DNA of 57,112 nt, from contig LXFE01000149.1 of assembly GCA_001929475.1 (NCBI GenBank), forward strand, positions 1-57,112, given 5' to 3'. Every line of letters begins with the position of its first letter. Position 1 is the first letter of the stretch. Made by a program: the position numbers and the translations under genes. This document shows positions 135 to 52,300 of the stretch, one piece after another. The notes beneath the pieces were generated by a model that had not been told where the DNA came from, did not search any database, and worked only from the letters and a program-made list of their open reading frames with translations. This DNA comes from Neolecta irregularis DAH-3. Taxonomy: Eukaryota.

Positions 135-1575
135 TCAAATATTGGTAATATTGGCGAGCCTTTTATATTCCTGCAGCAAAATTGGGATATCGCCGATTGT
201 TAGATCGTGCGCATTTGCATCGAGGAATTTTGAACCTACCTGGTGTGGTTTTGCAAAAGAGGGTATTGCGCGAGTGGTTAGATTTGTGGCAGCGCGAACG
301 ACGTTTAAGCCTGGTAGATTTGCGAGGGAACTGGAGCTACGGTTAGAGGTGACAAACAAGGGTGTACAATGATCTTTGCCCATTGTGTTTTTCTTTTGCG
401 AATAGTTGTTTTACCTCTTGGAGGGTTTTGGGGGAGGAGCTTATGTGGTCGCGGAGAAAGTTGTAGGAAGAGTCTAGAGCGGTGGAGGCGATGGAGACAA
501 CGGAGGGAGCAGGCTGTTGTGCTGAGAGGGGGGAGGGAAAGGTCTGCGAGGACGGGGAGGGAAAGGACTGTGGGTCGAGGTTGTGCAAGGACTTTGGATC
601 GAGTGTTTCAATAAAAGTAGCAGCAGCTTCAAAGTTTGTGAGGCAGTAGGACGATTCACCGGTGAGGGGAGGGTGAAAGCGCTGGACGAAGCAGATGTGG
701 GAAACGAGGTTTGAGGGTCTTGATTTTACAAGAGTGTAGATTAAGCAAGGGAGGATGTGGTCTGCGGCGGAGCAGTCATTGCCAACACGGGCGAGGGTGT
801 CGAGGACGTGCGAGTGGATGGCCTTGAGGGCGAGCAGCTTGTCGAGAGGGCTGGTGGAGGCGTACAAGGCGGGGAGTTCTGCGGGTTAGAGCGCGACTAT
901 AGGGCGGTTGCCTTTGAGAGTGTTGGAGATGGTGGCGAGGAGGAGGTTGTGCGGGAGGGCGACGGAGAGGGCCTGCAGGGAGAGGCGGGAGTGGTTGAGG
1001 CGCGCGGTGTTTGCGGCGAGGAGGAGGTCTCTCGCGCGGTCGTGCGGGGGGCAGAAGAGGAAGGCGTACGCGTGGGCGCAGACGGCTGCGTGCACCTTGA
1101 GCGACCACGCGTGTTTGCGGGCGGCGGCGCGGAGCCGGGCAGCCTTGCGGTCTTGGATCTGCCCGTAGGGGAGCATTTCGGCGGGCAGGGCCGTGGCGGG
1201 CGGCGGCGGGCGGGAGGAGTCGCGGCGGAGGGTCAGGGCAGCGAGGCAGCGGGTGAAGAGCAGCGGGTGCGAGTCTGCGGGAGCAGCGTGCAGCGAGAGG
1301 ATAAAAGAGTCGATGTCTGCGAGGATGTCTGGGTCATGGTCAGGGTCAGGCAAGCAGTCTGGGGCCTCTTGGCTGTTCGCTAGAGGGTCTGAATCGTCTG
1401 GACAACTGGCTAGAGGGTCTGAATCGTCTGGACAACTGGCTAGAGGATCTGATTCCTCTGGACAATTCGCTAGAGGGTCTGAATCCTCTGGACAATTCGC
1501 TAGAGGGTCTGATTCCTCTGGACACTCCCCCGGAGGGGTGTCTGAATTGGAGAGCGGGTCACCAAGGGGCGGCAT
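135..1575 (-). CDS. VPS9: VPS9-domain Rab5 guanine nucleotide exchange factor (3 exons)
   Basis: VPS9 motifs SPLDKL, ADHILPCLIYTLVKSRPSNLVSHICFVQRF, GESSYCLTNFEAAATFIE; C-terminal DLTIGDIPILLQEYKRLA; introns at 879-911 (GC-AG) and ~338-368. Confidence 0.8.
1379..1528 (-). repeat. Coding 30-nt tandem repeat x5 (CP[ED][ED]SDPLA[NS]) in the Vps9 N-terminus
   Basis: Unit gctagagggtctgaatcgtctggacaactg repeated with few substitutions. Confidence 0.9.
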
Positions 1576-1622
1576 CGGGACTCGCCACGGGTGGCAGTGG
1601 ACGCTCCGTCGGACTCACCACC

Positions 1623-2836
1623 ATGCTGCCGCACCTGCTCCTGCTCCTGCTCTGCCCCGCGGCCGCACCCGCCCAGTTTACTCTGCGGCACGAGTACCGC
1701 ATCGACCCCGACTCGCACGCGCCCCTCCGGACCGACCTGCGACCCGGCAGTGCCCCCCCCGCCGTGCTCCTCAACCACCGCTTGCGCCCTAAACCCACCC
1801 TGCCCAATGCCCTTGCCCGCCATAGCCCCGCCCTGCTCTTCCAGGCGCAGTCCCCGCTGCCTACACTCCCCGTCCCCGCCGTCTCCGACAAACACACCCT
1901 CGCCGAGCTCGCCCGCATGGCCAGCAACGCGTACCTCCCCGGCTTAGACTCGCCAGACTGGGTCCCCGTCGGCGCGCCCTGGAACAAGGCACCCCCCCGC
2001 TTCCCCTGCCGCCGCCGCTGCTAACCCGCCAGTCGCACCACTTTGGCTGGGAACGGGCCGGCCTGCGCGGTCACGTCTTTGTCGACCATGCAAACGCCAC
2101 CGTCGTCATCGCTCTCAAGGGCACCAGCGCGGTTCTTTTTGGCGGTGGCAAGACTTCAGCCCGCGACAAGACAAACGTACCCTCTTGCCAAGATTCCCGC
2201 TTATCGCAGGACAACCTCCTTTTTTCCTGCTGCTGCGCCCGCATCTCCTACGCTTGGAAAACGGTCTGCGACTGCTACTCCTCTGCAAACTCCTGCTCCC
2301 AGTCCTGTCTCGAACAATCCCTCCAGTCCCAAGACTCCTACTACAACGACGCCCTCACAATCTACCACAACGTCTCCTCAATCTACCCCGCTGCTACAAT
2401 ATGGCTGGTCGGCCATTCCCTAGGCGGCGCAATTGCCTCCCTCCTAGGCCTCACTTTTGGCCTCCCAACTGTCACCTTTGAGGCCCCCGGCGAGCTCTTA
2501 GCCGCCCAGCGTCTTCATCTACCCTTGCCCCCAGCTATCCCCGCGTCAGAGACAAACATCTGGCACATTGGCCACACCGGGGACCCAATATTCATGGGCG
2601 TATGCACAGGCCCTGCTTCCTCTTGCTGGTACGCAGGCTACGCAATGGAAACACATTGCCACACAGGCTTGGAATGCGTCTATGATACCGTCGCAGACAA
2701 GGGTTGGCGCATAGACATCAGATCACACAGCATCCTCCCTGTCATCAACGACGTCATCTTGGCTTACGACGATGTTCCAACTTGTAAAGAGGTCAAAGAC
2801 TGCGTAGACTGTTTTGCTTGGACTTTTCAGAACTAG
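1623..2836 (+). CDS. ATG15: Autophagy lipase Atg15 (3 exons)
   Basis: Signal peptide; MASNAY, FGW..GLRGHVF, KGTS, DNLLFSCCC, catalytic GHSLGG, GHTGDPIFMG, ETHCHTG; introns 1989-2032 (GC-AG) and 2177-2209. Confidence 0.92.
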
Positions 2837-7973: not shown

Positions 7974-9344
7974 TTAATGCAATCGTAAACTAAAGCCAGC
8001 TCCTCCAATCTCACCTTCACCAAAGAGACTTCCCCGATCCACAATGGGAGCACTCGGACTTTCATGCTTTCTCCTTTCCCCAGAAGATTTGGAAGGAAAA
8101 CTTGGCATCAATTCTGTTGCTTGCGGTCGTGGTTCTTCAGTGAAATAAGGATGCTGCATCGCCACGCGAGCTGTGATGCGATTCGAAGGGTTCAAGGAAA
8201 GTAGATCTGAAAGCAGGTTTACCCCTTGTCGAGTCAATAAAGGAAACCGAGCTCGCAAAATTGAGCCTCGTCTGTAAATTAATTGATATTCGCATCGAGG
8301 AAATGCTACGCGGCGAGATGCTTCGGAAAGTTTATTGCCTTTGCATTAGGAAGATCAGAAAACCCTGGCCACTCCTCATCAGATGGAACTCCTAGAAGCT
8401 CAAAGATCCGGCGTTAGGCCAATTGATAACGATCCAAACCTTTGAAATTTGATCCAATTCGCTTTTGCCCTGCAACAGAGGTTTACCTGTTAGCAACTCG
8501 GCAAAAATACAACCAATTGACCACATATCAATTGCAGTATCGTATTTTATCGCACCGAGAAGTAGCTCCGGAGCTCTGGAATATCAACAAAATAGATATG
8601 AGTTTACTTACCGATACCATAAAGTAACAACGAGCTGGGTTAAAGGCGGCAGCGGGTCGCCATACAACCGAGCAAGTCCAAAGTCTGCTATTTTTATCAT
8701 TCCTCGATTGTTCATGAGTAAATTTGAAGTTTTCAAGTCTCGATGAATAATCCAGTAATCATGAAGAAGAGCCGTAGCCGATAGCAATTGGAGCATCAGT
8801 GTTTTGACTTCCGATTGAAGGAATGGTTCCTTCATATCTTCCATGAGGGTTTTGAGATCATGCTCGATATAATCCATGACTATAAACACGCTCAATATTA
8901 CCTTCTTTTGTTAAAAAAAAGTGGGTAATACTGCGAAAGGCTTTCTCCCATGACGACTTCCCGTATATTTACGATATTCGGATGCCGAGCGACCATTAAT
9001 GTTTCTATCTCTCGTAGACTCGTAACTGGAAACCCATTCTTTTCATTGTCCAATTTGAGTTTCTTTAGAGCTACTATTTCGCCAGTTTCCATATCCCTAG
9101 CACGATAAACGATCCCATAGGAACCTTCCTCGATGTGGTTGAGCTTTTCGTATGTGTCTACGAGACGACAGGATTCCAGAGGTGCCCCGAAGAATTGAAT
9201 GGAACGATTTGATGGGATTGATGGTTGCTGTTCCTCGACAGCGGCCTTTGAGACTGAACTCTTGCGTTTCCTAGACTTTTTTGAAACTCGGGAAGAAGCT
9301 ACAGATGGTCCCTCAAGATTGTTATCATCCCATCTCGAAGTCAT
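7974..9344 (-). CDS. CDK11: CDK11/PITSLRE-like cyclin-dependent kinase (Ppk23/NpkA type)
   Basis: [50 protein letters not shown]; 4 introns, one apparently GT..GG at 8408-8439. Confidence 0.9.
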
Positions 9345-12449: not shown

Positions 12450-13239
12450 ATGTCGATGTTCTTCCAGGCCCTAAGACTTGGCAAAAAAGACGAGGATGGG
12501 AATTACTTGTTCAAGAATATCTCCTTTGATCTAATTCGAGGTGATACTGTCTGCATTCGAGGACCAAGTGGTTGTGGGTAGTCGACCGTGTTCTTCGCAA
12601 CTAATTTTGTCACAGAAAATCAACATTATTGAAAGCCCTTGCTCAACTCCAAGGATTCAACGAAGGGAAAGCGTTTTTGAAAGGCAAGGCTCCTGAACAG
12701 CATAAATCAATATGTCATTGGAGATCAAAAGTGCTCTACGTTGCATCGTCAATTCAAGCTCCTGGTTCACCTCTCGATTTCTGGCACACAGCAAAGTCCT
12801 TTACGTCCAATAAAGATAAGCTTGGTCAGGAAACGAAGCAATTTCAAGACCCCGTACGTCTTTCTGCATTTTGGAAGTTGCCCGAACAGTGTTGGATATC
12901 CCCATGGGCGAATTTGAGCTCGGGTCAAGTTCAAGTAGATTACAACCTGCTGAATTAATGTCAGCTCATTGCGTAGAAAGCGCTTTTGGCGATTGCGATT
13001 TGTTTAGAACCATCCGTCTTGCTACTAGATGGTTTGTATTTATTCTGCTTATATGCTGACTTTCTGAACCCACCTCGGCTCTCGATTTAGAATCGACACT
13101 TTTGGTCGAAAAATCTCTCAAAGCAATGACCTGCGTTTGGGTTACCCATTCAGCGGAACAGGAAAGTCGGGTTGCATCAGTGAGGACTATCTGGCTAGAT
13201 GTGGATGAGAGTACTCATTCAAGAACATCATACACATGA
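12450..13239 (+). CDS. Stand-alone ABC ATPase (single NBD, FetA/YbbL/STAR1-like)
   Basis: Walker A GPSGCGKSTLL, WRSKVLYV, signature LSSGQVQK, Walker B/D-loop VLLLDEPTSALD, H-loop WVTHS; no TM domain; third intron 13032-13066 ends in TG. Confidence 0.82.
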
Positions 13240-14827: not shown

Positions 14828-16002
14828 TTACACCATCACCATGGATATCAACATGTCCATCGCTCTCTCAGGTCCCTGCAATCGCACCATTTTCCGGAAA
14901 ATTGAGGGAACTGCACGCAAAAGGTCACGGTGCTGTACTGTTCGTCCGCGCTGCCCTGCAATAATGTCAGTCTGAGAGCAAAAACATTGGACTTGCAGCC
15001 GGACGGTACTCGGAGACCAGCAGTAAGCACATTGCGAGCGTTTCCCGTAGTTGCATCGACGCAAATCTCCCAAGTTATAACGAGCTCTGTTACTCTGAAG
15101 ACATGAAGTTGGGTTTCGCCGATCCAAGTGGATAGCTCGTCGGACCTTTTAGAAACTTTGCTCGGTTTGCGTGACTCGCGGGATGAGATTATGAACTCGG
15201 CATTGTATTTATTAAAGATATTGTGGAACACCAAACTTCGTGTAGCGCATAAGCGACTGTAGGATGAGAGGCCGTATAATAAATTGCCAATGTTGCGCTC
15301 TCTTGTTAATCTCAAATTGTGAGGAAAAGAAAAATCGCTGAATTCATACCTGTTGAATAACCCACCTAGTTCTCTGGATAATGCATCTGAGGCATGTATG
15401 TCTAATGCCACAACGCGTTCTTTAACTACAGACATAGTAATTTGAAACTGCAGATGGCGTGAATGACAGAACCCGTAGATATCATAGCGTGTGCTAGTAG
15501 TTCCTGGTTCGACCCCAGATTCCACACGTATCGAGGAATTCACAAACTGACAGTGAGTGAGAGCATCCAAATTCGCTTCGATTATGGAAGAAAGGTCGGG
15601 AAGGGCGTTTGGAACAGAAAGTTGGGGAGCCTGGACAGCTATTTCTCGTGAATTATTCAAGAATTCTTCATTCGACTTGAGGAGTTCGTCGCTACGGATC
15701 AATCAACATTTGCATTTGACATCTGGGTCGTACACCACTGCGGATAATTCCAGATTTCTGGGGTCTGGAATAGATTTCGAGGCTTTTGTCAGGGTTTGTA
15801 GATCCAATTCGAGTTCAGCAATCTCTTGCAAGAGACAAATTTCCAGCTCAGATTGATTTGAGGGTGGTGCATGTTTAGCAGGAGGCAATTGACGAGTTTG
15901 TTTCCTGATTCTCGGTACTGGCGAAGATGGTTTTGTTTTTTGCAGAAGATGGGGCGAGAATCGAGCAAGTGAAGCTGTTGTGGGCGAGAGATACGAGGCC
16001 AT
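14828..16002 (-). CDS. Probable inner kinetochore subunit CENP-P/Ctf19/Fta2-like
   Basis: Coiled coil then RWD-like region ELVITWEICVD..G...L..RVP and C-terminal AVPSIFRKMVRLQGPERAMDMLI resembling the CENP-P C-terminus; 3 introns incl. GC-AG 14956-14996. Confidence 0.55.
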
Positions 16003-16104: not shown

Positions 16105-17599
16105 ATGGCACTTAGACTCGCCACCCGCCCATTTGCCCGTCTGAATCTGCCATTTAGATCTGCCGCTATTCATTTTGCGCGTCCTGTCGTTGCTGCTGTT
16201 GCCCCTTTGAGTAAACCAATTGCTCGTCGCGGCATGAAAACCATGGACTTTGCCGGTCATAAAGAACCCATTTATGAGCGTCAAGACTGGCCCCGCGAAA
16301 AGTTCCAGGTGCGTAGATGTCTTCTATTATTTTATTATTATTTATTATTATTGGTTCACTTAGCCTGATTTGATAGGACTACTTCAAAAATGACATTCTT
16401 GCATTGATTGGCTACGGGTCCCAAGGACATGGCCAGGGTCTAAACGCCAGGGACAATGGTCTCAATATCATTGTTGGCGTACGCCGAGACGGTGCTTCTT
16501 GGAAACAAGCAGTCGAGGACGGCTGGGTATTCATAGCCTCAATTGAGTCCAGCTAAACCCAAGGTCCCAGACAAAAATCTCTTTGATGTAGAGACCGCTG
16601 TTAAAAGGGGCACAATCATCATGAACTTGCTATCGGATGCCGCCCAAAGTAAAACATGGCCTCAACTGAAACCGCTCATCACCAAGGGCAAAGTATGCCT
16701 CTCTCTTTCATCTCTAAATCCAGACTCTGTATTTCTCCCACGGATTCTCTGTCGTTTACAAGGATATCACAAAGGTTGTTCCGCCTTCTGATGTTGATGT
16801 CATCCTTGTGGCTCCCAAAGGCTCTGGCCGCACTGTCCGATCATTGTTCAAGGAAGGCCGAGGAATCAATTCTTCGATCGCCGTTTGGCAAGATGTAACA
16901 GGCAAGGCAGAGGAGAAAGCTGTTGCCCTTGCAGTAGCCGTCGGTTCGGGCTACATGTATAAAACCACCTTTGAACATGTAATTTCTTGATATGTTCCTG
17001 ACTGATTCTATGAGGAAGTTTACTCCGATCTCTATGGAGAGCGAGGGTGTTTAATGGGCGGTATCCAGGGCATGTTCTATGTATCTCCTAGCTTTTGTTC
17101 TTATCTGACTAAAGGCGCAATACGAAGTTTTGCGTGAGCGTGGTCACTCCCCCAGCGAAGTGTTTACACCGTTTCTACGTTTATGCTAATTATTCAGGCT
17201 TTTAACGAGACTGTCGAGGAAGCTACTCAATCACTTTATCCACTAATCGGTAAAAATGGAATGGATTGGTATCTGTTCAAAATTTCTCGATTCTGATTTT
17301 CAGGATGTTTGCTGCATGCTCAACTACAGCTCGCCGGGGAGCTCTCGACTGGTGGCCAAAGTTTTACAAGGCAACAAAGGCATGCACCCATTCTGTACCT
17401 TCACCTGATTACTTAGCCTGTCTTCAATGAACTCTATGATGCCGTAAAGGATGGTTCAGAGACCAAGCGGTCTCTTGAAAGCAATAGCAAGTCTAATTAT
17501 CGTGAAGAGCTTCAAAAGGAATTAGATGCTATGAACGATCAAGAAATCTGGCGTGTGGGTAAAGTCGTTCGATCTCTCCGCCCTGAAAACAAAATTTAA
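16105..17599 (+). CDS. ILV5: Ketol-acid reductoisomerase, mitochondrial (9 exons)
   Basis: IGYGSQGHGQGLNARDNG, MNLLSDAAQ, VAPKGSGRTVRSLF, EVYSDLYGERGCLMGG, ACSTTARRGALDW. Confidence 0.97.
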
Positions 17600-17815: not shown

Positions 17816-20080
17816 ATGATTGAAATTCACTCCGATTCAGAATCAGATATTGAATGGGATGATGTCCAACTGACTGCGCCGGTACTCGAGCCTTCCAATT
17901 CCACAGGAGACAAACCAAGTGAAATTCTTGTACCACTTCAACCGAAGAAACTTTTGACCAAAACAACTGGGTAAACCTTTTTTGGATAGCTGCTAACTGT
18001 AATTTCAGAAGGCGAGGCATCTCAACTGCTGAAAAACAGCAAAGACTGACAATTCACAAATTGCACATCCTTTGTTTGTTGTCTCATCTCTTGATTCTGA
18101 ATCGTGCTTTGAATACAGAAGAACTACTGGCAAACTCTTTAGGGAACATTGGCTTACCAGATAGAAAAGGTCAAAAGACTTGATCCCGGCACGAATATAC
18201 GAAGATCTTCACCCTCAAAAAGATCTCATTCCTGCTCAAAGGTCCGTTTACTTCAATCGAGGACTCAGATCTTTGATCGATTTATGGAGAAATAAGTTTA
18301 AAACAACATGCGAGGGCATAAGAAAGCCTTTGTGGAGGTCCACATCGGCCGTATTCAACATTCAATATATTCATTAATGAGGTAGAATATCGATATATTC
18401 AAAAGCTCCCGAGAAACCTTGACGCAATCATTCAGCTCTCTTTCAGGCTCGAGAGATATAGGGGCGCAGCTCTTGACAATGCTTCTCAGAGCAGCTGGAG
18501 TTGAAACCCGTCTCGTCTGTTCGTTGCAAGTTTTGGATATTATTTCGACTGAAGAATCCGTTGTGCCACACTCTGTACCTTTCCAGAATCCTGAACAAGG
18601 GCTACGCAGCTCGGCGAATGATTTGACTAGTGATGACAACGAGCCGAAGCAGAGCACCCTTCAACCGCGCAGTCGAAGACAAAAGTTCAGAGTTCCCTTG
18701 AACAATGGTTCCAATATCGAAATAATTGTAGTTTTACTTGAAGAATACCTAAACTTACTCCAGAATACTTTTCATGATCCGCCATTTCCAGTGTATTGGT
18801 CGGAAGTTTTTGACGTGGCGACACAAAAGTGGCTCCCTGTTGATGCTTTTGCTACAAATACTATCGCAAAGCCAACAAAGCTTGAACCTCCACAGTCACT
18901 TCGGGAACTTCACATGTGCTATGTCATTGCATTAGACTATGGTAGTCTGGTTTGTTGTCCGAGCTCACTCGTCAGATGGCTTCGTAAAGGACGTCACTAG
19001 GCGGTATACCCGGTCGTTCAATAACAAGATAAGAAAATCGCGCATAACATCAATCGAGTCTGGACGAAATTGGTTTTGTTATGCCATGGCTTTCTTGAAG
19101 CGGCAGTGGATTGTGGTTTGGGAGAAAACTTTAATTTGCCAACGTTTAGGATTCAGATCAGATTGAAGATGCTGAATTGCTTAATTATGAGCTTTCTGAA
19201 AAAATGCCGACAAGTGTCCAAGACTTGAAAGACCATCCCATGTAATTCCCCACTGTCTGAAAACAGCGATTCACTTTCTCAGGTATGCTATGGAAAGGCA
19301 TTTGCGTCGCGATCAACTGATCGCCCCAGGAAGCCGACCTTGTGGGAGTATCACTGTAGGAAGAGGCCGCACTCCAGAAAACGTTTATCAACGCCAAAGC
19401 ATTCTGACAGTCAAATCTGAAGAACGCTGGTATCGAGAGGGACGACAGATCAAGGTATATTGGAAAATTACATCTGCTAAGTGAAGAACGGCGAGCTACC
19501 AGTCAAGTCCTTGCCTCGAAAATCGAGAGAGAGAGACAACAGAGCTCCTGAGACTGCTGTGCATATGTATACCTTTGATCAGACTGAACTATATGTGCCA
19601 CCACCGGTCGTAAATGGTCGGATACCCCGAAATACCTATGGGAATTGCGACTACTATATGCCTTGGATGATACCCTTGGGTGGTATTTTCGTTCAAGGTG
19701 CTTCCTGGTTAAACAGTGAAGCGAAAGCTGACTTGAAGATGCTGCGACTGCCAGAGCTGCGGCTAATCTCCTCATAGTGGACTATGCCGATGCTATTGTA
19801 AGTGCTCCTTGCTTGCTCTGTATTGACAGGCCAGACCGGGTTTCGCTTCCAAGGTCGTCTTGCTCGCCCGATTATTAGCGGAATCATTGTTGCGGCCGAA
19901 TACTTGGAGGCTGTACTTGCAGTGCAGCAAGGATTTGTTGACCTGGCATTGGAGGAACGTGTACAAGCACAGCGCAAAAAGACTCTGGAGCGGTGGAAAC
20001 TGTTCCTTACTGGTCTTGCCATATGCAAACGGCATGTTTTGTAAATTCGCCTGCTAACTGTTTGTAGCTTGGACTCATAG
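17816..20080 (+). CDS. RAD4: DNA damage recognition protein Rad4/XPC
   Basis: IHKLHILCLL, GSRDIGAQL..LLRAAG..TRLVCSLQ, YWSEVF, KDVTRRY, KDHP.YAMERHL, PPVVNGRIPRNTYGN, DYADA.TGF; start and final exon uncertain. Confidence 0.9.
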
Positions 20081-20144
20081 CGGCACTTTCCCGTTGTCAC
20101 GTGTCCCAAGTACTTCCTGCAAACGCCACCATTTTAATTCCGTT

Positions 20145-21114
20145 ATGTTGCTTACGCGCGCCTTTACCGGCCGCCGCTGCTTCTCACCGCCCAGTTTTCG
20201 CTTACTTACGGGCGCATACCTATGCCGCTCTCAGTCTTCTTTACCTGAGAAACCCGACCTCACCCATTTTGGCTTCCGTGAAGTCCCCGCCCCCCTCAAG
20301 CAGTCGTTGGGTATTTCACCCTGCTGATCTCAGTCTAATTTCCCTGCATATAGTCGCCGAGGTTTTCTCTTCTGTTGCTTCTTCCTATGATCTCATGAAC
20401 GATGCCATGTCTGCAGGGATCCACCGTTTGTGGAAAGACCGATTCGTCCAGAAACTTGATCCCGGCCGTGGTCGCATGAATATTCTCGATGTTGCTGGAG
20501 GGACGGGCGATATTGCCTTTCGGATGCTTGACCACGCTGCAAAAGTACACAACGATCACGATACGCTGGTTACTTGCGTAGATATTAACCCAGATATGCT
20601 CGCAGAAGGCAAGAAAAGATTATTGTCTACCTGCTACGCCAACAGTACTGCCATAGATTGGCTCTCTTCTGACCCTCTAGCTCCTAGGGTCTCTTTCAAA
20701 GTTCAGAATGCCGAGCTTCTCGACGAGATACCTTCAAATTCTGTCGACCTATATACCATCGCATTTGGGATCCGCAATTGCACCCACATCCCGCTTGTTC
20801 TACAACAAGCCCATCGCGTCCTCAAACCAGGCGGTATATTTGCATGTCTGGAATTCGGCAAAGTCTCGCCTCCCCCTCTGGCTTCACTCTATCGCCAATA
20901 TTCCTTCTCAGTGATCCCTTTAATCGGTCAACTGATCGCCGGTGATCGTGATTCATACCAATATCTGGTAGAGAGCATTGAAAAGTTCCCAAAACAGGAA
21001 GATTTCGCCAAACTGATTGAGGATGCTGGGTTTGAAATTTCTGGAAATGGATGGGAAGATTTGACCTTTGGCGTCGCGGCAATCCATACAGGCCTGAAGA
21101 AAAAATATAAATAA
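20145..21114 (+). CDS. COQ5: Ubiquinone biosynthesis C-methyltransferase Coq5
   Basis: THFGF, VFSSVASSYDLMNDAMSAGIHRLWKD, LDVAGGTGDIAF, YTIAFGIRN, YQYLVESIEKFP; 2 introns. Confidence 0.95.
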
Positions 21115-36487: not shown

Positions 36488-38696
36488 TTATTCTGCCGAA
36501 GCGGCTATTGTGGGACTTAATTCATTCGTTAGCAATTTGGTAATTTTCCCAATGGCAACCGTGGTTCCCTGGTCTCGTAGAGTAAACCGACCCATAGCAG
36601 GACTGAATGTGTATTTTTCAACTGCGATAGGCGATGCCATGTCCAGTCGAGCAATCAACTTCATGCCCTTTGTCGCAAAAGCAGGCGCCTTTTTGCTACG
36701 TCGATTTGTCCGGTCGAGCTTGTGCAAGAGAGCCTAAAAAATCAAAACCTTTGCAGCTCGAGGGAAATATACACCAAAAGTGACTTCTTCGACAGCAGTA
36801 TGGATATGCATAACGCACGTATAACCAGCGGTGAGCAGATTCTTGAGATCGAGAATTGAGATTTGTGCTTCAAAAGAGGTTACAGTGCTGACAGGATTTG
36901 CCTTGCAACACAAGACTGACCCCATAAAGATATCTTCTTCCTCAATACCTCGTAAACGAAGTCGGACCTGGTCACCACAGAAAGCAGATTCTACTTCAGC
37001 TTCTGTTTCGTTGTAGATTGCTGTCACTTCGACAACAGCCTACATGTTAAGTGAAAAACAGACTGTCATAATACTTTATTTGGCATGATCATCAGACTGT
37101 GGCCTTTACGGATGCCTCCACTTTCAATCTTGCCTTCGATTACGGTGCCCATATCCTAAAACATCAGCACGTCTTTATCCAAGGGTGCAACTTTGTATTT
37201 GCCACCAATGGGCATCAGGAATGGAGCATTAAGCTTTCGAGCAAGCATTTGAACATTGTCAAGATACTCGATAAGTGATGGGCCATTGTACCACTGGCAA
37301 ATATTCTTTGTAAGTCTATCTTTTATATTTACACCTGTGTATCCTGAAACGGGCATGAACATGATATCTGTAATAAGTTGATGTGATAGGGAGGTGTCAT
37401 ACCTGTCTTTGGATTATAGCCGGTGTTTTTCAAGAATTTGGTAAGACCATTGACACATTCGTCATATCTTGAAGATTAACCAGGACGACGATGGAATCAA
37501 CCTCTCTTTAGACCAAGCAACAGTGGGATCGTCCATCTTGTTGATTACTACGACCAGCTTGTTGACGCCTTGGGTTTTCGCCAGAACGGCATGTTCTCGG
37601 GTCTGGCCACCCTTTTCGAAACCAGTTTCGTACTCGCCTTTTCTCGCAGAAATGACGAGTACCCCGATATCTGCTTGAGCAGCTCCGCCAATCATGTTTG
37701 GAACGTAGGTTTTATGGCCTGGTGCGTCGAGAATAGTATATCGGCGTTTCTCGGTTTCAAAATATGCTCGACCCACTTCCACAGTTTTGCCCTTAACGTA
37801 AGCATAGTTATACAAGTTGGAATTGCCTTTGATCTCTCCTCTTTGGTCGAATCTAAGGCCCAGCTCAGATACCAAGTCTCACGACTTGCTTCTTTTGCTT
37901 CTCGTTCGTACTTTTCCATGGTACGCTTGTCGACCATTCCGGTGAGGAAAAGAATATTCCCACCCATGGTAGATTTCCCGGCATCTACGTGACCAATGAA
38001 GACGACATTGATGTGTTCTTTTCCATAGATGTCATGCAATATTTCTTCGTCAATTTCATTCTGATCTCTTGTGACGGCATCAAAGTCTCGTCTCACGTCT
38101 GCAGACTTTGTCAGGTCGTTTTTTGAAATATTGGGTGCGATAGGATTTGTGTCTTTCGAGACATTATCGCAATTTTTCGAGGGAGCTGGTTTTGCTGGCT
38201 GTTTTGTAGAGACCTTGGGCGGTTCAGGAGTCTTTGCTGGCTTTGGAGGATCTGACGATGATGCGCCGAGTTTTATGACCTTGGGAGCAGCCGAAGGAGC
38301 AGCGGGAATTCTCTGGGACGGCGAAACAGAATAATTACGGGCTTGAGGCAAGGAGAATAAAGTGGGACTTTGTGCCGGGGGAGTGGATCGTGCAGTTTGC
38401 AGATCTAGAGGTTGTGAATGGTAAGCGTGGTCTTGCGAGCAGTAGGCCTGCGGGTGCTGGTACTGCTGATTATGCTGGACATACTGATTATGTTGATTAT
38501 GCTGATATTGATTTTGCAGGCCATGCTGATACTGATACTGATGCTGCTGCAGGTAATGGTCGGGCACTGCTGTATAACCACCACTTCCAGGCTGAAATAC
38601 TGGTGCTGTCATACGAAGGCCCTGCATCATCCTGCGCGTATTTTCTTCATCCTGATCAGGCAACCCCTGATGGGGGTAAGGATTGTTGTTGGTCAT
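36488..38696 (-). CDS. SUP35: Translation release factor eRF3 with Q/N/H/Y-rich N-domain
   Basis: GHVDAGKSTMGG, WYLSWALD, GKTVEVGRAYF, LDAPGHK, NKMDD, GRFTLRDQG; 6 introns incl. GC-AG 37792-37826. Confidence 0.97.
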
Positions 38697-38777: not shown

Positions 38778-40685
38778 ATGGATGCTCTACTTGCCAGAGT
38801 CGGTTCTCAGGCTGCAACTTTTGCAATCCGCAGCGGAATCAGCTTTGCTTCAGCTGTAGCTGCTCGCCATATTTCACGTCTGATCAAAGATGCGCCCAGA
38901 CACGCACAACGCCAGTTACACGCTGCAAAACGAAAGCTGGATGCAAAGATCAATATCATTTGTCCTGCAATAAACCTTCTCGAGACAATGTATGGCTATG
39001 GAGAATGGCTGCTGAATCGTAGAGCCGCCCGTGGCAATACCACTCTTGATAGCACCATCAGCCTGACCGCCGGCCTGCGCAAAGATATCGATGTTTTCAA
39101 CGAGAAGTTGTCTCTTATCGACCCTGCCAAACCAAGCGAGAAGGAGATCCAAGCGGTTTTGAATGATATAGGAGACTTGCAAGCTCGGATCGAAGACGTA
39201 ATTTGCCATGGCTGGCCTTGGTCTGACACCCAGATTGTGCCTCTCATCAGTCTCGCTCTTACCACTTCGGGTGCCAATCTTACTTCTTCACTGCCATATA
39301 CCGTCTCGCCTTCACGTCTACTCCAAGCCTCTACTCTTCTTTTCTCTGCAGACAATGCATATTCTCACGATGTTTCGTATTCTGCCCACCAGATCGGCCC
39401 AGTTTATGTGCTGCGTCTTTATACTCTCTTCTCTGGCAGCAATCGGGCTGCAAATATGGTTGCAGCCAAGGACTTCACTTGGAAGGAGGAGCATGCAAAA
39501 TGCCATGTAACAGTGTTGAGAATTCCCCACTCGCAAACCGGCATACCGCGTTCTTACAACTACGAACTGAGAATCTCAGAAGACCTGAATGATGGTCGCT
39601 ACCACGAAGAACTAGAATCTGCAAATCAAACGGCTCAATCTGTCTTCACACCGGGCCGTATTCGCGCAATTCCGATTCACGAGGTATCTCGATGGCACAC
39701 AAAATATCTTCTGACATGAGAGATTTCACGTCTATTCTTCACTGCTTCAGGCACTCTTCTTAATATAGAAGATGCCCATACGCCTGTTCTTGTACTCAAA
39801 CTCGTTCATTCATCGGACGAGTCTGAGCTCGATACTGAGGTGCAAGAGCCCACGGAGGGAGATGAAGACCACGAACTTGATCACATTGAATGGGTTGCAT
39901 TTGAGCTGTGGCAAGACGATCAAGTGGCTTCAGATGGATTCGAGGAGGATGATCTTGACGAAGACGACTCGTCGCTCTCCTCAGCAATGGCTCTCGCCGC
40001 AATAACCGATTGCCCGCAATTGAATCCCGACAGACCTATTCGGTTGCGAGAGACCTATGACATGGTTAGCTCTGGATCCTTGTCACTTTTAGAATACACG
40101 CTCAGATTAAGCGCTCTTCAAGAAAACCAGCAAACGAGCGTGCTTCATCTTCCAGATGAACTAATTTCGTTATTCCTACGGGACGAAAATGGAGATTTAA
40201 AAGGAAAAAGAAATGCGGAACATGAACGGCGGAACTGGGATCCATTAGCGACGCCCATGTTGGAAAAATATGCAACAGATGAATATAGTTCTCCTCGTTC
40301 TAGAAATACACCAGCGTTGATAAATGGATCTGCAGAACGGAGGAGCGGGTCATTAGAAAGTATATCTCGTACACCTACGCGGAAGAAGCCGCTTGCCAGC
40401 TCTTCAACGGGTCGGATGCTGGAGAGAACACACGAGCTTGTCGGCGAATCTTCACCATCAGCTGGCAAACCTGTGGGTGAATCTCCGATTGTCAAGTCTG
40501 ATATCGGGAAATCCGAGTCTGTGGGCGAATCTATGTCCATTACAAAATCTGATATAGGGAAACCCGAGTCTGTGGACGAATCTCTTTCGACTTCCAAGCC
40601 TGATGTTGGGCAACCCGCTGTGGAAGAATCTCCTCGTTCGATTTCCAAGTCTATTGATGTAGAGCAATCCCAAATTCCGCCTTGA
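38778..40685 (+). CDS. YRB30: RanGTP-binding protein Yrb30 family
   Basis: MDALLARVGSQAATFAIRSGI, AARGNTTL, PLISLALTTSG, SPSRLLQAS, EDLNDGRYHEE, LSLLEYTLRLSALQ. Confidence 0.85.
40440..40655 (+). repeat. Degenerate coding 48-51 nt tandem repeat (VGES....KSDIGKPES) in the Yrb30 C-terminus
   Basis: 3-4 units starting gtgg(gt/gc/ac/aa)gaatct. Confidence 0.75.
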
Positions 40686-40774: not shown

Positions 40775-41872
40775 TTATTCGTGACCGATGCAGCCCAACC
40801 CGAGCAATTCAGGAAATTCTTCAAATGATTCGACAGGGAACTTTTCAAAGGGGTCAATGGGAAATTCTTCAATGGTATGACGAGGTAAATGGGCGATGGC
40901 GTTCCTGGTGGCATCGTTTCCTGGATGCGTGGCACACCCGACACAAGCACAGCTATGGATGTAAACCCAAGTAAAAAGAGATAAAACTAAAATACCCTTC
41001 TCCGCAGAGACATACGACGCCTGGATTAGCGCACCCTGAACGATAGAAGAATTCTAGCTGTTGGCTGATGTCTGGGTTGCGTGGATTTTGGGGTGTGTAT
41101 ATCTGCGTTGTTTGCTGGAGTAGCTGTTCGCCTGTTGGTAGTTCAAACAGACAGTGAGTTGCGGGTATATTGTCTGGGTGGGTAGGATACGTGAATAATT
41201 GTGCCGAGCACGAAGGAGTGGGCTGCTGGTAGCTGAAACTGGGATAGTGCATTGCTACTGGATCTGCAATCCACGGTTCAATGATGGGATTAGAATCAAG
41301 ATTAGAATCAAGATTCGAGTCGGTGCATGGAATGCTGATGCAGCCAGTCAAAGCCGAGTCTGTAGATGCCGCATTTACAATAGGAGCGCGGTCTCTGAGA
41401 CTGCACGGCGTCGAAACAGACGACAAATCGTCATCAGCAATAGTCGAAGCATCTCTTCGAGATTTCGAGTCGAAGGGCGGCACCGACTGGATTTTCGCAG
41501 GTCCGCACAAACAGGCAGTGCCCGTAAAACACGCACAACTCCCGAGCTCGAGCTTCAAAGAGCATTTCGAGCCACGTCTGGGTCGAATAGCAGCCGATGA
41601 ATTTGCCACAAGGGAGCGGTCATCTTTAATCCCCAACGCTTTTGCACGGTCACCACAGTCGCAGCGCGAATGGATATTTGCCTTGCGATGACCACGGCAG
41701 TGCGCACATTGGGTCGGAGGACGGCCTTTTGGCTGGACAAGCTGGAGATCACGATCGTCATGGGAGCATTGGGATGCCCTATGGCCACGAATACACTGGG
41801 CGCTGGAATTAAAAAGGAAATCGGCAATCTGGAATACCAGGCCCATTTCTGGCCGTCGCGGATGAAGGCCAT
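40775..41872 (-). CDS. Copper-fist transcription factor (Ace1/Mac1/Cuf/GRISEA family)
   Basis: GQKWAC|AQCIRGHRASQCSH..KGRPPTQCAHCR; Cys clusters CACFTGTACLC and CLCGEG|CACVGCATHP. Confidence 0.9.
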
Positions 41873-41965
41873 CGAATGGGTACTTTGTGGGAGGGTTGAC
41901 AGGGTGGTTCGGCTGATTTTGATTTTGATTGGATTGAATTCGGGTTCAGGCACCCGCTGTCTTTC

Positions 41966-45630: not shown

Positions 45631-45787
45631 TTAGCGGCGCTGTATTATATTCATGTATTCTTACCCCTTGTACATAACCAAACGACCAATAGACATCCTT
45701 ATTTTCCTTGCGGCTTTGTTCATTGTATTAATCCTGTAGCGTACACGTGCAACTTAAAAGATTTTCCGGAGAGCCCATGATCATCAT

Positions 45788-47532
45788 ATGTTCCGAGTGT
45801 CACCAATCTTGAAACGAACTATTCAGACAAAATCATATGGCCAGCCTCTGCCACAGACGCATCCTCATTTGTTTACATCTCATCTAGAATGTATAGCTAT
45901 TCGTGGTCATGTTACTGAAACAATCGTCAAGTAACACCAGGTATTCCCGCCAGTGAATACAAATCGAGACGGGATCGGCTCGCAGCAAAACTTTCCGAAG
46001 GAGACCTTGCCATTATCGCTGGTAGCGCAGTTCAATGGCGTTCATCGAGTGTTTTGTGCGTACCTGAAACTATATAATTTTAAAATATGCAGTTATCCGT
46101 TCTACCAAAATTCCGACTTTTCGTATATTTCAGGTACCCCCGTTTTACTTTGACAGTCTACTCATCATCAGGATTTCTAGAGCCGGATGCATTGATTGTC
46201 CTGGAACGATCAGATAGCTACGACCGTGGATATAAATATCATTTATACGCCCGCGAAAAGGACCCACATGAGGAAACATGGCAAGGTTCACGTTCTGGGA
46301 ATCGAGCTTGTATCAAGATTTTCGGTTCAGACACCTCGACTAATATTGCCACAATGAGTTCCTCGTTGAATGAATTAATCACGAGAGCGGGTAATATATA
46401 CGTTGATCTTCCAACAAGATCGTCACCAAAGGACTTCCTCTCTCCGAAAGTATTACGGGTAAGGATGTCAAATTTGCAGGAGGCTATAGATCAATTGTTG
46501 TCCCACAAGTACGTTTTGCCTCTTTCATCAATATTACATCCTATGCGTGCATTCAAAAGTCTCGCTGAAATTGAATGCATGAGAAAAGCAGGGGAAGCTT
46601 CTTCACAAAGCTTCGACTGTGTCATGAGTCAAAGCTTTAAATTGGAGTCTGCCCTCTGGGCGTGTTTTGAACATGAAATTAGGCGTAATGGTTGTCATTC
46701 TGATGGATATGTACCTGTTGTTGCAGGGGGGGAAAATGCTTTGATCTTGCACTACGTCGAGAATAATAATGTGCTGCGGTAACAAGAATGTATAAGAGTT
46801 TCCAGTAAACTCGTAGGAATGGAGATCTGGTCTTACTGGATGGGGGAGGAGTATGCTCCCTGACATCTGCTTCAAGTTAACAAGAGTAGCAATACGGAGG
46901 TTATACCGCCGGTATGTCAACCCAGATATGGAACTAATTTTCCAAAAAAAGATATTACGAGGACATGGCCTGTGAACGGTAAATTTTCATGCGCGCAGAA
47001 AGCTCTTGTCTCTGCAGGTAGATACTATACTCTGTTCACATCATAACATCTTAGTTTTGGAAGTGGAAAAAAAGTGCATCAAGTTGTGCACACGATCAGC
47101 CGGTTTGTCTCTTGATGATATCCATGACAAAAGCAAAGAATTCCTTGCTGCTAAGTTGAAAGAAATTGGATTCGGATTTGAAAACTACGTACGATCAAAA
47201 CCTGACTTGTTCTTATGCTAGTCTCTAACTGATATTTATCCTCATCATATCGGGCATTTCGTTGGACTTGATGTTCATGACTGTGCTAAATTTCCGCGTC
47301 ATCAACATCTAGAAACTTCGCAAGTGGTAACAATCGAACCGGGCGTATATGTTCCAAACGATGACAGATTCCCCAAACATTTTCGAGGAATGGGAATTCG
47401 CATTGAAGACTGCGTACTTGTCGGGGAATATTCACCAACCCTGTTGACCAATGTCATTTTTATCATTGTTCCTGCATGCTAATCATCTAGGCTCAAAAAG
47501 AGATTGAAGTGATCGAAAGTCTTCGTTCATAG
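45788..47532 (+). CDS. ICP55: Mitochondrial Xaa-Pro aminopeptidase Icp55
   Basis: GQP..THPHL, YVPVVAGG.NA.ILHY, QYGGYTADITRTWPVNGKFS, HHIGHFVGLDVHD, VTIEPGVYVP, GIRIED; 9 introns. Confidence 0.92.
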
Positions 47533-49232: not shown

Positions 49233-49393
49233 TTTATTGGTCAAATTTGTGATGTAGTTACGTTCTATATATTATCGCACGATTGTAGAACTTAACCACC
49301 ATACTCATCTCCGTCTTTCAATAGTAAGGTTGGATGGACTCTCTCGGTCTCGTCCTCTCTGCCTGATTCGCATTATCAAAATTGACTCCCTAT

Positions 49394-52300
49394 ATGGATC
49401 TGCGGTCAAGCAAAAGACAAAAGTTAACTCATCCTCAGCAACCATTTTCATCCACCTCACCAGATTCAACCCCAGCTTCCTCGAGACTAACCCACCCCAT
49501 TTCTCCACAAGCTCAAGGTCAAGCTCGACGGAGGTTTGTGGTTCTTCTTCAAATACTTTGGGCTTTGCTGAATAGCAGTAGATCTTTTAAGAGCGATTCA
49601 ATTGATCAGCTCCAAGAGCAAGGGAAACCAGTCAAGAAACGCAAGCTCGAAACCTCTAGAGACCTTCTATCTATCTCCCATCAACGAGAATCTCGAACCT
49701 TAGGCTCAACTGAGCTTTCTGAAGAATCATCTTCAAAATATAGCCTTAGACCTCGAAGACCTAAGACCTCATCCACTCCGTTATTTGAAAGTAAAATTCA
49801 ACACATATCGAGGACTAGAAATACTTGCAAAATGCCAAGGTTACAACAATTATTATTCGTGTGTTAACTGCTTCAGGTCAGAGAAGCCCTCAAGCTCACT
49901 TCGCTCAAAAGGGTCCAACAAGCGCTCTGGTCAAATGTCGATCGAATCGCAAGGTATGACTCAATGAATATATGTGGATTGAAGTCTAGAAACATCCATC
50001 GAACGAGAAATATTTGAAGAACGTGCGACTGAGGACCGAAGTGAACATGAAGATGAAACTATGGAAGAATTAGGTGAAGATGCTATACCAGATCGCGGAA
50101 TGAGTCTGGGAAGTTTCCTTCGAAGAAATCCTTCTATCTTGTTCGGTCGTAGTGCTTTCCTAGGTGGCATGACAAGTAGTGTCTCTCCCAGCAGATTCAA
50201 GATTATCCTAGCTAACCTCCGCGAGAAGAACGATCAAACTATCCGGCTTGTTGCTTTGCAAGAATTGGCTGAAATTCTTGCGGTTTCAACTGAGGAGTCT
50301 CTCGCAGGTTATTTTTCGGCAGAGCCCTACATCCACGAACTAGTCGATATCATGCGGGGTTCTGATAACCCGATGTTCGATAATCCAGAACTTATGGTTT
50401 TGGCATGTCGATGCCTAGCAAACCTTATGGAAGCTTTGCCAGCAACAATTGGCCAGATTGTTTATGGAGGAGCTGTCCCAGTTCTGTGTCAGAAGCTACT
50501 TGAAATACAGTACATCGATGTAGCTGAACAGGCTCTTACTGTATGCCTTATCGCTCGACATGTTATTGACTGGAGCAGACTCTCGAAAAGATTTCAGTCG
50601 ACTATCCTTCGTCTATTGTTCGTGAAGGTGGACTCGCCGCCTGTTTGTCCTTTCTCGATTTCTTTGCAACAAACGTGCAACGGACAGCTGTCATAACCGC
50701 CGCGAATTGTTGCACAAATATCCCATACAACTGCTTCTCTATTGTGCGTGATGTAATTCCAATTCTTCAACAAGTGGTTGCTGGGAGTGATCATAAAGTC
50801 GTAGAACAAGGTTGCATTGCGATAGCGCGAATAGTCAACAGTTTTAAAGCTCATCCGGCAAAACTCGAGGTTTGCGCATATCAAACACCCGCTGATTGTC
50901 GACAGGAACTTCTGCAGCCAAGTTTATTAGAGGTTATCATTGACATGCTACTTCCTTCAAAAAACAACAATCTCAGTCCGAGTATTCATACGCAGTTTCT
51001 TCGCCTTTTAGGGACGATTTCAAGGACGTCTTTCAAATTACGGACACAGTTACATAAGATGAATGTTGGAGCGAAGCTTTATCAAATCATGAGTGGCGTT
51101 GCCTTTGACTTGGAAATAGTGCAGAATGAAGAAAGACGAATGGTCATTCTTCAAAGCATGATTCACCGAAACTACGATCAAATTTTTGAAACATTGAGCA
51201 CCATATACGAATTACTTCCTGTCGTACCAAATGAAGGTGAGTGTATTTTTTGTGTATTGAAGATAACTTTTTAGTTCCCTCGATTTTACCGTCCCCTGAC
51301 ACTTCGGACAAACCGACGAGTGAAGACATTGCGGAAAAGCAACAAAAATTCATGGAAGAATGTCGGGGCGAGCTTTTGTCTTTCGCAATTATTCTAGCAC
51401 CTGTCCTCGTTGATTTATATTCCAGCACTGTCAATATCATCGTTCGGCAAAGAGTGTTAACATCACTTCTGCGTATTGTTAGCAATTTCCACAAATCCAT
51501 GCTTGAGGAGACTCTAAAGGTATGAAAACGTATGATTCGACATTCCCATATGTTAGGACATTCCCTTTGCTCCCTTCCTCGCCTCTATTCTATCTCAGAA
51601 AGACAATAACATTCTTGTTATGGATGCCTTGCATTTATCGCATGATCTGCTTCTAAAGTTGCCCGATATTTATCTCGATTTATGTGAACGAGAAGGGGTT
51701 ATCATGGAGGTTCAGAAACTTGCGAGACTGGTGAGTGAAAGGCCCAATACTTCAAGTGATACACCTGAAAATTCAAAGGCATACAATATACTGGCATTAA
51801 AACTGACTGTAGCTCGAAACAGAGCCTGATATTCAAGAAGTTGAAGAAGTTGCAATTGAAATTTCTGGCTCTCTTGGCTGCGATGAAGACCATGGGGTTA
51901 ACGGAGATGACGATGAAGACGACGAGGACGATGTGGATGAGGAAGAGAGTGAAATGGATGATGAAGTAGCAGTGCGACATCTTACTACTACAACCCAAGA
52001 TGGCACAGATGATATGCGACAAAAGGCAACTCAAATTTTACTGACTTATGAGAAAGCTCGCAAGGAGCATGAGTCCTCGGCCCAAGCTTCAACTAATCTC
52101 AAGCAACTTGAAATTTTACGTGATGCTCTAGAGAAAGGAGTTGATTTCGATGAAAACTTTGCAAATCTCTCCACGTTTTTCGATTCAAATCCTTCGAAAG
52201 TATCTAGCTATGAACTCTTGAATTCCGGGATCCTTACGGCTCTATATTCTGCTTTAACTTCTGGTAGATCTTAACCAATACTGTATTGATAAGTTAGATC

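Follow-up and report, generated by a model that had tools for sequence, protein, structure and literature searches.

Can a fungus begin a sizeable share of its introns with GC instead of GT, and which signals would then mark the intron start? The question is raised by one whole contig of Neolecta irregularis (57,112 bp, hereafter the window), in which a sequence-only reading had named 11 GC-AG introns among roughly 150 (~7%). According to the survey in PMC7072748, GC-AG introns amount to ~1% of introns in animals, plants and fungi, with a fungal mean of 1.009% (its Table 1). The evidence on splicing considered below is that of sequence and homology.

The intron set and the eleven candidates

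The window is gene-dense and its introns are 31-43 nt long, a tightly bounded length. An intron signal model was trained on 92 GT introns with positions +1 and +2 left out; the training introns themselves score no lower than -3.5, with 0.7 as their median. A gene finder, run with a penalty of -2.5 nats on GC donors, returned 101 introns, 93 GT and 8 GC, and seven of the latter were already among the 11. It recovered 17 of 27 independently checkable introns, and therefore the earlier figure of ~150 introns is a reasonable one; as used here, this denominator is an extrapolation from 99 credible calls and the same recovery. An Rfam search of the window found no RNA, and no snRNA.

On the strand of its gene, each of the 11 intervals opens with GC and closes with AG; all are 33-44 nt long and carry a CTRAY-like motif whose end lies 4-9 nt from the 3' end. 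Under the GT-trained model, with scores of -1.6 to 5.0, each of them outranks every other frame-compatible intron at its site. U12-type introns are marked by RTATCCTT as their extended 5' consensus and, not far from the 3' end, by a branch site like TCCTTAAC; a U12-type identity was rejected, none of the 11 donors reading [AG]TATCC and all reading GCA or GCG followed by varied bases. The claim of 11 GC-AG introns holds in part: six are confirmed by homology, two are strongly favoured, two are plausible with a usable GT alternative, and one, at 20032, is not required, since the RAD4 stop lies inside it and two genes had been fused. Removal at the exact borders restores both the frame and the alignment with homologs at six sites of the 11, and at 879 and 21841 the case is made by frame logic only.

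Introns confirmed by homology

The six confirmed introns, and a deposited intron that bears on one of them, are:

1989-2032, plus strand: GC-AG intron of ATG15, 44 nt, aag/GCACCC; confirmed with a profile of 40 relatives
17380-17416, plus strand: GC-AG intron of ILV5, 37 nt, aag/GCATGC; confirmed by continuity of Pfam KARI_C
18130-18164, plus strand: GC-AG intron of RAD4, 35 nt, ctg/GCAAAC; confirmed, absent from the deposited annotation
18170-18204, plus strand: deposited RAD4 GT-AG "intron", score -7.1, C at +3; most likely coding
28416-28448, minus strand: GC-AG intron of UBC8, 33 nt, aag/GCATGT; confirmed as an insert that homologs lack
29981-30015, plus strand: GC-AG intron of ECM31 (ketopantoate hydroxymethyltransferase), 35 nt, cag/GCGTGT; confirmed by Pfam Pantoate_transf
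37792-37826, minus strand: GC-AG intron of eRF3/SUP35, 35 nt, aag/GCAATT; confirmed by the deposited protein and a profile

ATG15 spliced at the GC donor scores 514.8 bits against its profile, versus 487.6 and 482.7 for two GT alternatives (a margin of +27 bits over the best), and the alignment is gap-free over the junction. In ILV5, the upstream exon closes with KARI_C positions 62-89, which reach its final residue, and positions 91-143 run from residue 2 of the downstream exon, the best GT alternative being a 22-nt intron that scores -6.2. ECM31 gives a comparable picture: Pantoate_transf positions 107-158 finish at upstream residue 109/110 and 160-230 run from downstream residue 1; a 116-nt intron with a score of -2.9 is the best that GT donors offer. 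The UBC8 interval is in frame and stop-free, and against human UBE2H (8pjn_2) the read-through protein aligns with a gap of 11 residues precisely there; its signal score is 5.0, versus -5.6 for the best GT alternative. For eRF3, the deposited protein P0007 (664 residues) is identical to the model with this intron, which scores 380.0 bits on a 40-homolog profile versus 371.1 for a 23-nt GT alternative (+8.9 bits).

The RAD4 model with the GC intron reaches 93.7 bits on an ortholog profile, versus 79.9 for the deposited GT model (+13.8 bits). Yeast Rad4, whose structure is solved, aligns with query residues 4-55, among them residues cut out by the deposited intron, and this alignment suggests that 18170-18204 is most likely coding sequence. 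At the level of the predicted proteins, frame and alignment together establish, for six conserved genes or more, the removal of GC introns at these exact borders.

Strongly favoured and plausible introns

Two further introns are strongly favoured:

879-911, minus strand: GC-AG intron of a VPS9-domain gene, 33 nt, aag/GCAACC
21841-21876, minus strand: GC-AG intron of a WW/FF-domain gene (earlier named "Dre4-like"), 36 nt, aag/GCAGGA

Two things fix the acceptor of 879-911: a downstream-frame stop, and a VPS9/Rabex-5 alignment that begins 3-9 residues past it. The GC donor (1.7) is the only intron-like one, the runners-up being another GC (-1.4, 284 nt) and a GT (-3.6, 217 nt); a homology search gave no confirmation of the upstream exon of this gene. 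Reading through 21841-21876 meets four stop codons, and the downstream exon begins at position 8 of the FF profile. The six best candidates, none of them GT, score from at most 0.9 down to -7.7, and a 51-nt GT alternative was rejected as beyond the 31-43 nt intron range.

Two candidates have a GT donor that could serve in place of GC:

14956-14996, minus strand: candidate GC-AG intron close to an orphan gene's 3' end, 41 nt, gct/GCAAGT; plausible
51779-51812, plus strand: candidate GC-AG intron of a UFD4/TRIP12-like gene, 34 nt, aag/GCATAC; favoured

In the first, the deposited protein P0133 takes a GT donor at 14992 (GTCCAA), 4 nt further in, with the same acceptor. Its donor-context score is -3.45, under all 92 GT introns, versus 1.21 for the GC donor. 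The name "CENP-P-like" given earlier to this gene finds no support: a homolog search matched the window's own deposited protein only, and no Pfam family was found at the cut-off. The second candidate scores 4.4, and its GT alternatives -3.0, -3.5 and -4.7 at 103, 115 and 82 nt. An alignment with TRIP12 over residues 7-58 of the upstream exon rules out the 103- and 115-nt options. The 82-nt intron starts at a GTGAGT donor (GT 51731) 48 nt upstream of 51779; this donor falls at residue 58, the edge of the TRIP12 alignment, and is compatible with it.

The RAD4-COQ5 boundary

20032-20067, plus strand: intron-like element at the RAD4 stop, GCATGT...CTAAC...TAG; donor ambiguous
20311-20353, plus strand: GT-AG intron 1 of COQ5, from the frame display; marks COQ5 as a separate gene from 20145

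The element at 20032-20067 was rejected as an intron required for RAD4 continuity, for the RAD4 frame ends inside it, at TAA 20042-20044, and COQ5 begins at ATG 20145. The N-terminal exon of COQ5, which we take to resemble known COQ5 N-termini, runs from that ATG to the GT donor at 20311, with the UbiE/COQ5 domain in the next frame. The deposited protein P0121 is spliced at GT 20036-20067 and fuses RAD4 and COQ5 into one protein. GT donors at 20036 and 20041 use the same acceptor as 20032, with scores of 0.19 and -4.0 versus 3.6 for GC. Here, as at 14956 and 51779, either the GC donor or a GT donor may be the one used; an intron at 20032 is needed for no protein.

The GC-AG share and the donor context

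On this one contig, 8-10 of ~150 introns are GC-AG, or 5-7%. The share is several-fold above the fungal mean; the earlier ~7% was based on 11 of 150. A count of intervals bridging open reading frames showed no GC excess over control dinucleotides (11 versus 4-17). In an annotation-free scan, five of the nine GC...AG elements scoring at least 1 were not introns (four antisense to coding ORFs, one a GT intron shifted by 2 nt), and for this reason the motif alone is poor evidence.

Weak donor context is common to all introns of the window, GC and GT alike. The GT introns (n=96) hold 0.25 bit of information at +4, 0.08 at +5 and 0.09 at +6, ~0.4 bit in total, and their +4 position is T in 50 of 92 and A in 15 of 92. 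The sequence-only reading had described +3 to +6 of the GC donors as degenerate. It was mistaken about +3, which is A in 10 of 11, and right about the weakness beyond, the intronic +3 to +8 context being no stronger in GC introns (1.05 versus 1.10 nats in GT introns, no significant difference). Position +5 is G in 4 of 8 GC introns versus 25 of 96 GT introns, and there may be some intronic compensation at +5 among these eight. Acceptor (0.84 versus 0.86) and branch scores (5.66 versus 5.23) do not differ significantly between GC introns and 98 GT introns.

GC introns thus share length, branch motif, 3' site and weak donor with their GT neighbours and differ only at the exon end, where positions -3 to -1 score 1.42 nats versus 0.52 (p=0.002). 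Of the 8 validated GC introns, 7 have AG before the cut, versus 29 of 96 GT introns (p=0.002), and 6 have AAG, versus 12 of 96 (p=0.0003), an enrichment partly inflated by the detection of GC introns, because the finder scores exon positions; 18130, the sole validated GC intron without AG, was missed by both the finder and the deposited annotation and was found via homology alone. The earlier count of exonic AG in 8 of the 11 is correct. It had also been stated that GC donors need a near-perfect match to the textbook AG/GCAAGT. This was a generalisation from other organisms: in the window the exon part of the match is present (AG in the same 7 of 8) and the intron part is not, GCAAGT standing at just one of the 11 sites, 14956.

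A proposed minimal intron start supported by the exon end

Probably, to judge from these patterns, we are dealing with ordinary U2-type introns that carry GC for GT, make up ~5-7% of the introns of the contig and have a minimal start supported by the exon end. The intron start would be informative for little beyond G-Y-A, and recognition would lean on a very short, tightly bounded intron and its branch site, with the last exon bases pairing with U5 loop 1 and/or U1 in support. Pairing of U5 loop 1 to the exon end can offset weak intronic pairing, as described in PMC11732430. We propose that, given a start of such low information and this reliance on exon end, length and branch, a T-to-C change at +2 would be tolerated next to an AAG exon end, and that such changes would accumulate. 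Since all donors are weak, the earlier idea of relaxed donor recognition relying on exon end and length fits the sequence and is in part supported; the AAG excess and the 31-43 nt length agree with it, and it loses one of its 11 sites to the two-gene fusion.

Like U2-type GC-AG introns known from animals, from plants and from other fungi, those of Neolecta start with GC, end with AG, have the branch and 3' sites of GT introns and interrupt conserved coding sequence. They differ in their 5-7% share on this contig and in positions +4 to +6, which show no gain in strength over GT introns. For human GC sites, PMC11732430 describes a consensus with G at -1 as well as at +5. There is also a likeness to the AG//GUNNN class, which Parker, Fica and Simpson define among 5' splice sites by a strong potential for interaction with U5 loop 1 (PMC11732430): the Neolecta GC sites combine a strong AAG exon end with an uninformative intron side. 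This class was defined for GU sites, and in the account given in PMC11732430 human GC sites fall outside both classes. The Neolecta sites (8-10 introns) show the sequence pattern of the U5-type class, membership of which is set by the interaction potentials of GU sites and is judged here from sequence pattern.

Two fungal cases may be compared. The yeast Meyerozyma guilliermondii is intron-poor, and its share of splice sites that are non-canonical would rest on few introns, whereas the Neolecta window holds ~2.6 introns per kb. What the two have in common is a non-canonical share far above the fungal mean, ~6.67% of major non-canonical splice sites being listed for M. guilliermondii in PMC7072748. 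In S. pombe, which belongs to a related fungal group, introns sensitive to loss of the U6 m6A made by Mtl16 are rescued by pairing between U5 loop 1 and the exon end (PMC11732430). There too exon-end pairing offsets a weak intron side; the S. pombe sites, however, are +4A GU sites in a mutant, while those of Neolecta are GC donors in a wild-type genome, whose GT introns prefer T at +4.

Alternative explanations

The excess could come from a trans-acting change rather than from passive relaxation, with the U1 5' end, U5 loop 1, Mtl16/METTL16 or SNRNP27K altered or lost. The preference for T over A at +4 of the GT introns points this way, and PMC10581693 reports that in yeasts a +4U preference accompanies loss of METTL16 or SNRNP27K. 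This account overlaps with the explanation preferred here, and as a separate cause we regard it as unlikely.

Less likely again is that the GC-AG introns are real and the contig a chance or selected outlier in a genome with an ordinary share (~1-2%). A single contig was analysed, it was picked for its unusual look, the 95% interval for 8/150 reaches down to 2.3%, and two GC introns lie in its GC-richer first 4 kb (54% G+C), where local composition may matter. Against this, at the fungal mean 8 or more of 150 would occur with P=1.6e-4, and 10 of 150 with P=3.6e-6; moreover, the GC introns are distributed over nine genes along the whole contig.

We find it very improbable that nearby GT donors are truly used, as deposited, and that the GC readings are artefacts of forced protein continuity. 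The deposited annotation has the same donor as the sequence-only reading at one of four comparable sites (GC at 37792) and takes GT at 18170, 14992 and 20036; a usable GT is indeed present at 14956 and, as GTGAGT, at 51779, and the GT 4 nt inside 20032 has a positive score. At six sites, however, a GT donor costs 9-27 bits or breaks the continuity of the profile, position +3 of the donors deposited for 18170 and 14992 is C, a base that 0 of 92 GT introns carry there, and the deposited RAD4 model is itself a two-gene fusion. That the C at +2 reflects a mistake of assembly, or one allele of a heterozygous sample whose expressed allele has GT, is hardly credible: although field-collected fruiting bodies were sequenced, coverage was 199-fold (PMC5309816), and at least eight independent errors, all at intron +2, would be required.

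Meaning for intron recognition in Neolecta

If introns with a minimal, exon-end-supported start are the rule in Neolecta, the genome as a whole may have at least 4% of introns starting with GC, the top value known among intron-rich fungi, with U5 loop 1-type support from an AAG exon end as their sole need and no strengthening at +4 to +6, and its spliceosome may read G-Y-A within a 31-43 nt window. The same reading predicts, from the +4U preference, that Mtl16/METTL16 or SNRNP27K is lost or altered. We put this forward tentatively, as a possibility that falls somewhat short of being probable. Annotation-based surveys would miss such an excess, because deposited models swap some GC donors for poor GT donors. 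Neolecta would then lend itself, as a natural test case, to asking how the spliceosome recognises intron starts.

Intron architecture of the window

The genome of Neolecta irregularis was reported to comprise 14.5 Mb and 5,546 genes, and RNA from fruiting bodies was sequenced; the word "intron" is absent from the main text of that report, and intron statistics may be in its supplements (PMC5309816). The window has a G+C content of 45.8%, its first 4 kb being richer (54%). Introns were called with a gene finder of our own, which combines a three-periodic Markov coding score with a length term and with weight matrices for the positions of donor, branch site and acceptor. Restricted to GT donors and run with a recalibrated intron prior, the finder predicted 33 genes with 88 GT introns; once GC donors were admitted, penalised by 2.5 nats, the number of introns rose to 101 (93 GT and 8 GC). 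The deposited eRF3 protein has 664 residues and is 100% identical to the eRF3 exon used as query, and two further deposited proteins can be placed exactly on the window. All six eRF3 introns of the deposited protein were reproduced, and 17 of the 27 introns that could be checked via deposited proteins or homology were recovered; the finder is specific, not sensitive. Since some 99 credible calls were obtained at a recovery of about 63%, the window would hold about 150 introns, in agreement with the hand count of a previous sequence-only reading. Intron density is about 2.6 per kb, and intron lengths are extremely short and uniform. The finder tends to overlook in-frame, stop-free introns, for example:

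2177-2209, plus strand: in-frame, stop-free GT-AG intron of 33 nt in ATG15, visible only as an 11-residue insert relative to homologs
about 28578-28613, minus strand: in-frame, stop-free GT-AG intron of 36 nt in UBC8, visible only as a 12-residue insert relative to homologs

Models based on open reading frames run straight across both of them.

The GT introns measure 31 to 43 nt, with a mean of 36 (n = 96). Of these 96 donors, 78 carry A at +3 and 50 carry T at +4 (T in 50 and A in 15 of a set of 92), and no more than 25 (26%) have G at +5; the information content at +4, +5 and +6 is 0.25, 0.08 and 0.09 bit, respectively (n = 96). Past GTA, the donor holds almost no information. The branch site has a CTRAY-like motif whose end lies 4-9 nt upstream of the 3' end.

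GC-AG introns supported gene by gene

The sequence-only reading had proposed 11 GC-AG introns. Read on the gene strand, all 11 intervals have GC as their first and AG as their last two bases, and a signal model trained exclusively on GT introns ranks each of them first among the frame-compatible introns at its site. Six of them stood up to homology and two more are strongly favoured; the sites at 14956 and 51779 are candidates with a GT alternative, and the one at 20032 did not hold as a RAD4 intron.

The predicted introns confirmed by homology lie in ATG15, ILV5, RAD4 (18130), UBC8, ECM31 and eRF3. For the ATG15 intron (1989), the profile built from 40 relatives shows no gap at the junction; it gives the GC model 514.8 bits, and the two GT options 487.6 and 482.7. 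At ILV5 (17380) and ECM31 (29981), the Pfam profiles continue from the last residue of the upstream exon to residue 1 or 2 of the downstream exon. The UBC8 intron (28416) keeps the frame and contains no stop codon, and its read-through, compared with human UBE2H, appears as an 11-residue insert exactly at the intron. The eRF3 intron (37792) is present in the deposited protein, and a 23-nt GT alternative costs 8.9 bits. At RAD4 18130, the deposited protein bypasses the GC donor, reads on and splices at GT 18170-18204. This splice deletes residues that align to the solved yeast Rad4, scores 13.8 bits lower on an ortholog profile, and uses a donor with C at +3, which is found in 0 of 92 GT introns. 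Searches with the RAD4 protein returned no relative above 35% identity.

GC-AG introns are strongly favoured by the reading frames at two further genes. In VPS9 (879), the position of the acceptor follows from a stop codon together with the alignment of the domain, and no donor other than the GC, which connects to an open frame of 234 codons, looks intron-like; the upstream exon had no significant match among solved structures. In the FF-domain gene (21841), the read-through contains four stops, the downstream exon starts at position 8 of the FF profile, and the sole GT option would give 51 nt.

Sites with a GT alternative

At UFD4 (51779), the alignment with TRIP12 excludes two longer GT options and is compatible with a GTGAGT donor that gives an 82-nt intron; length strongly favours the predicted 34-nt GC intron over this one. 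The site at 14956 belongs to an orphan gene:

14928-16002, minus strand: orphan gene whose sole protein match is its own deposited entry

The sequence-only reading had labelled this gene CENP-P-like; the protein search returned only that entry and no Pfam family reached the cut-off. The deposited model instead splices at GTCCAA, whose GT lies 4 nt further into the intron and whose score is below that of every GT intron of the window; coding potential (-1.23 versus -5.78 and -3.09) gives no clear choice between the two C-termini that would result. A GC-AG candidate intron is plausible here, in a gene without homologs.

The element at 20032 had been read as a second RAD4 intron, which fuses two genes. 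The RAD4 frame terminates at TAA 20042-20044, within the element, and the long open reading frame that follows is COQ5, a gene with a separate start codon (ATG 20145) and an intron 1 at 20311-20353. The same two genes are joined in a deposited protein:

17816-21114, plus strand: P0121, a RAD4-COQ5 fusion of 955 residues, named COQ5 methylase and joined via GT 20036-20067

After the fusion point, P0121 stays in an open frame for 95 codons, which cover COQ5 upstream sequence and COQ5 intron 1, and it omits the N-terminal COQ5 exon that begins at ATG 20145. RAD4, a conserved repair gene, is mis-modelled because the gene models of this species under-call GC donors, and it is fused to its neighbour. 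The 20032 element itself is strongly intron-like (signal score 3.6), with a GT at 20036 that is also usable, and could be a terminal or untranslated-region intron.

Several GC donors (GCATGT, GCAAGT, GCGTGT) have a second GT 2-4 nt further in, at positions 14992, 20036, 28444 and 29983, and these pairs could serve as alternative 5' sites. It is at such nearby pairs that the sequence-only reading and the deposited models disagree.

Frequency of GC-AG introns

The case for GC-AG introns rests on the per-gene homology tests, because the motif alone is no evidence and two further counts have no power. A loose census of GC...CTRAY...AG elements gave 727, against 633-1125 for other dinucleotides, so that GC is as common as any other. 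An annotation-free scored scan gave 9 high-scoring GC elements versus 0-5 for the controls, but five of the nine are false, as they either lie opposite a gene on the other strand or are a displaced copy of a GT intron call. The powerless counts are that of elements bridging open reading frames (11 GC versus 4-17 for the controls) and that of in-frame, stop-free introns inside exons (9 GT and 4 GC versus 2-8 for the controls). The following features bear on individual candidates or were also recognised in the window:

913-1614, minus strand: tandem repeat of an SDPLANCPE-like peptide (about nine residues), encoded by the open frame that precedes the VPS9 domain, within the GC-rich first 4 kb
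7977-8640, minus strand: CDK-like protein kinase
12605-12955, plus strand: weak ABC-transporter match (E = 0.00054; 21 bits, under the 25-bit cut-off)
30467-32332, minus strand: Bye1/PHF3-like TFIIS/SPOC protein
40956-41945, minus strand: copper-fist transcription factor, Amt1-like
46084-46779, plus strand: aminopeptidase P

Of the four GC candidates in the count inside exons, 41742-41777 lies within the copper-fist domain, which aligns without a gap, and was rejected as coding. Among the other GC candidates, those at 15392, 29683 and 32356 lie on the strand opposite predicted genes, that at 46484 is antisense to the aminopeptidase P frame, and 8272-8306 is the GT intron 8272-8309 shifted by 2 nt. 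Candidate 1350-1383 is antisense to VPS9; the plus strand is also open over 1305-1600, and this is the source of that false call by the finder. Two further candidates from the count inside exons fall in unaligned parts of the Bye1/PHF3-like protein, and for the fourth, 39541-39579, no solved relative was found.

On this one contig, the eight supported GC introns represent 5.3% of about 150 (95% interval 2.3-10.2%), and ten would represent 6.7%; the finder's own calls alone include 7 GC in 100. The fungal mean for GC-AG introns is given as 1.009% (Table 1, PMC7072748). At that mean, the probability of 8 in 150 by chance is 1.6e-4, and that of 10 in 150 is 3.6e-6.

Donor context and a possible mechanism

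Compared with 98 GT introns, the GC introns show no difference in intronic donor context (1.05 versus 1.10 nats), acceptor (0.84 versus 0.86), branch site (5.66 versus 5.23) or length. The exon end scores 1.42 nats for GC and 0.52 for GT introns (p = 0.002), the exon ending in AG in 7 of 8 validated GC introns versus 29 of 96 GT introns and in AAG in 6 of 8 versus 12 of 96, an enrichment that is inflated by the way GC introns get noticed. The AG//GUNNN class of 5' sites, which the available part of the source describes as favouring U5 loop 1, shows this pattern (PMC11732430). The same source gives a different description of human GC sites, with G at both -1 and +5.

We infer that the start of a Neolecta intron may be read as little more than G-Y-A, in which case specificity would be supplied by the branch site, the exon end and an intron length that is short and fixed. 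Changes of T to C at +2 would then survive where the exon ends in AAG. A changed trans-acting factor may also play a role. In budding yeasts, a preference for T at +4 is associated with loss of METTL16 or SNRNP27K, according to the available part of the source (PMC10581693); by this association, the +4 T preference of Neolecta would yield a concrete, testable prediction regarding METTL16 and SNRNP27K. An Rfam search over the whole window gave no match, hence no snRNA among its sequence.

Significance

The +2 position of introns is among the most constrained bases of eukaryotic genes and, to our knowledge, few organisms accept C there at several per cent. As a type, GC-AG introns are already known. 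As far as our searches reach, there is no published account of GC-AG introns making up 5-7% of the introns of an intron-rich fungus, as predicted here on one contig, with compensation on the exon side only. No publication combining Neolecta with GC-AG was found, the available part of PMC8476143 makes no mention of GC-AG, and the term was not found among the matches listed for the literature on other Taphrinomycotina. For Neolecta itself, gene models, and the surveys based on them, under-call GC donors. With its tiny introns, nearly information-free donor and frequent GC starts, this intron-rich, uncultured fungus would offer a natural system for studying how the spliceosome commits to a 5' site, the contacts in question being those with U1, U5 loop 1 and the U6 ACAGA box with its m6A, and for asking how far intron length and branch site can replace these contacts.
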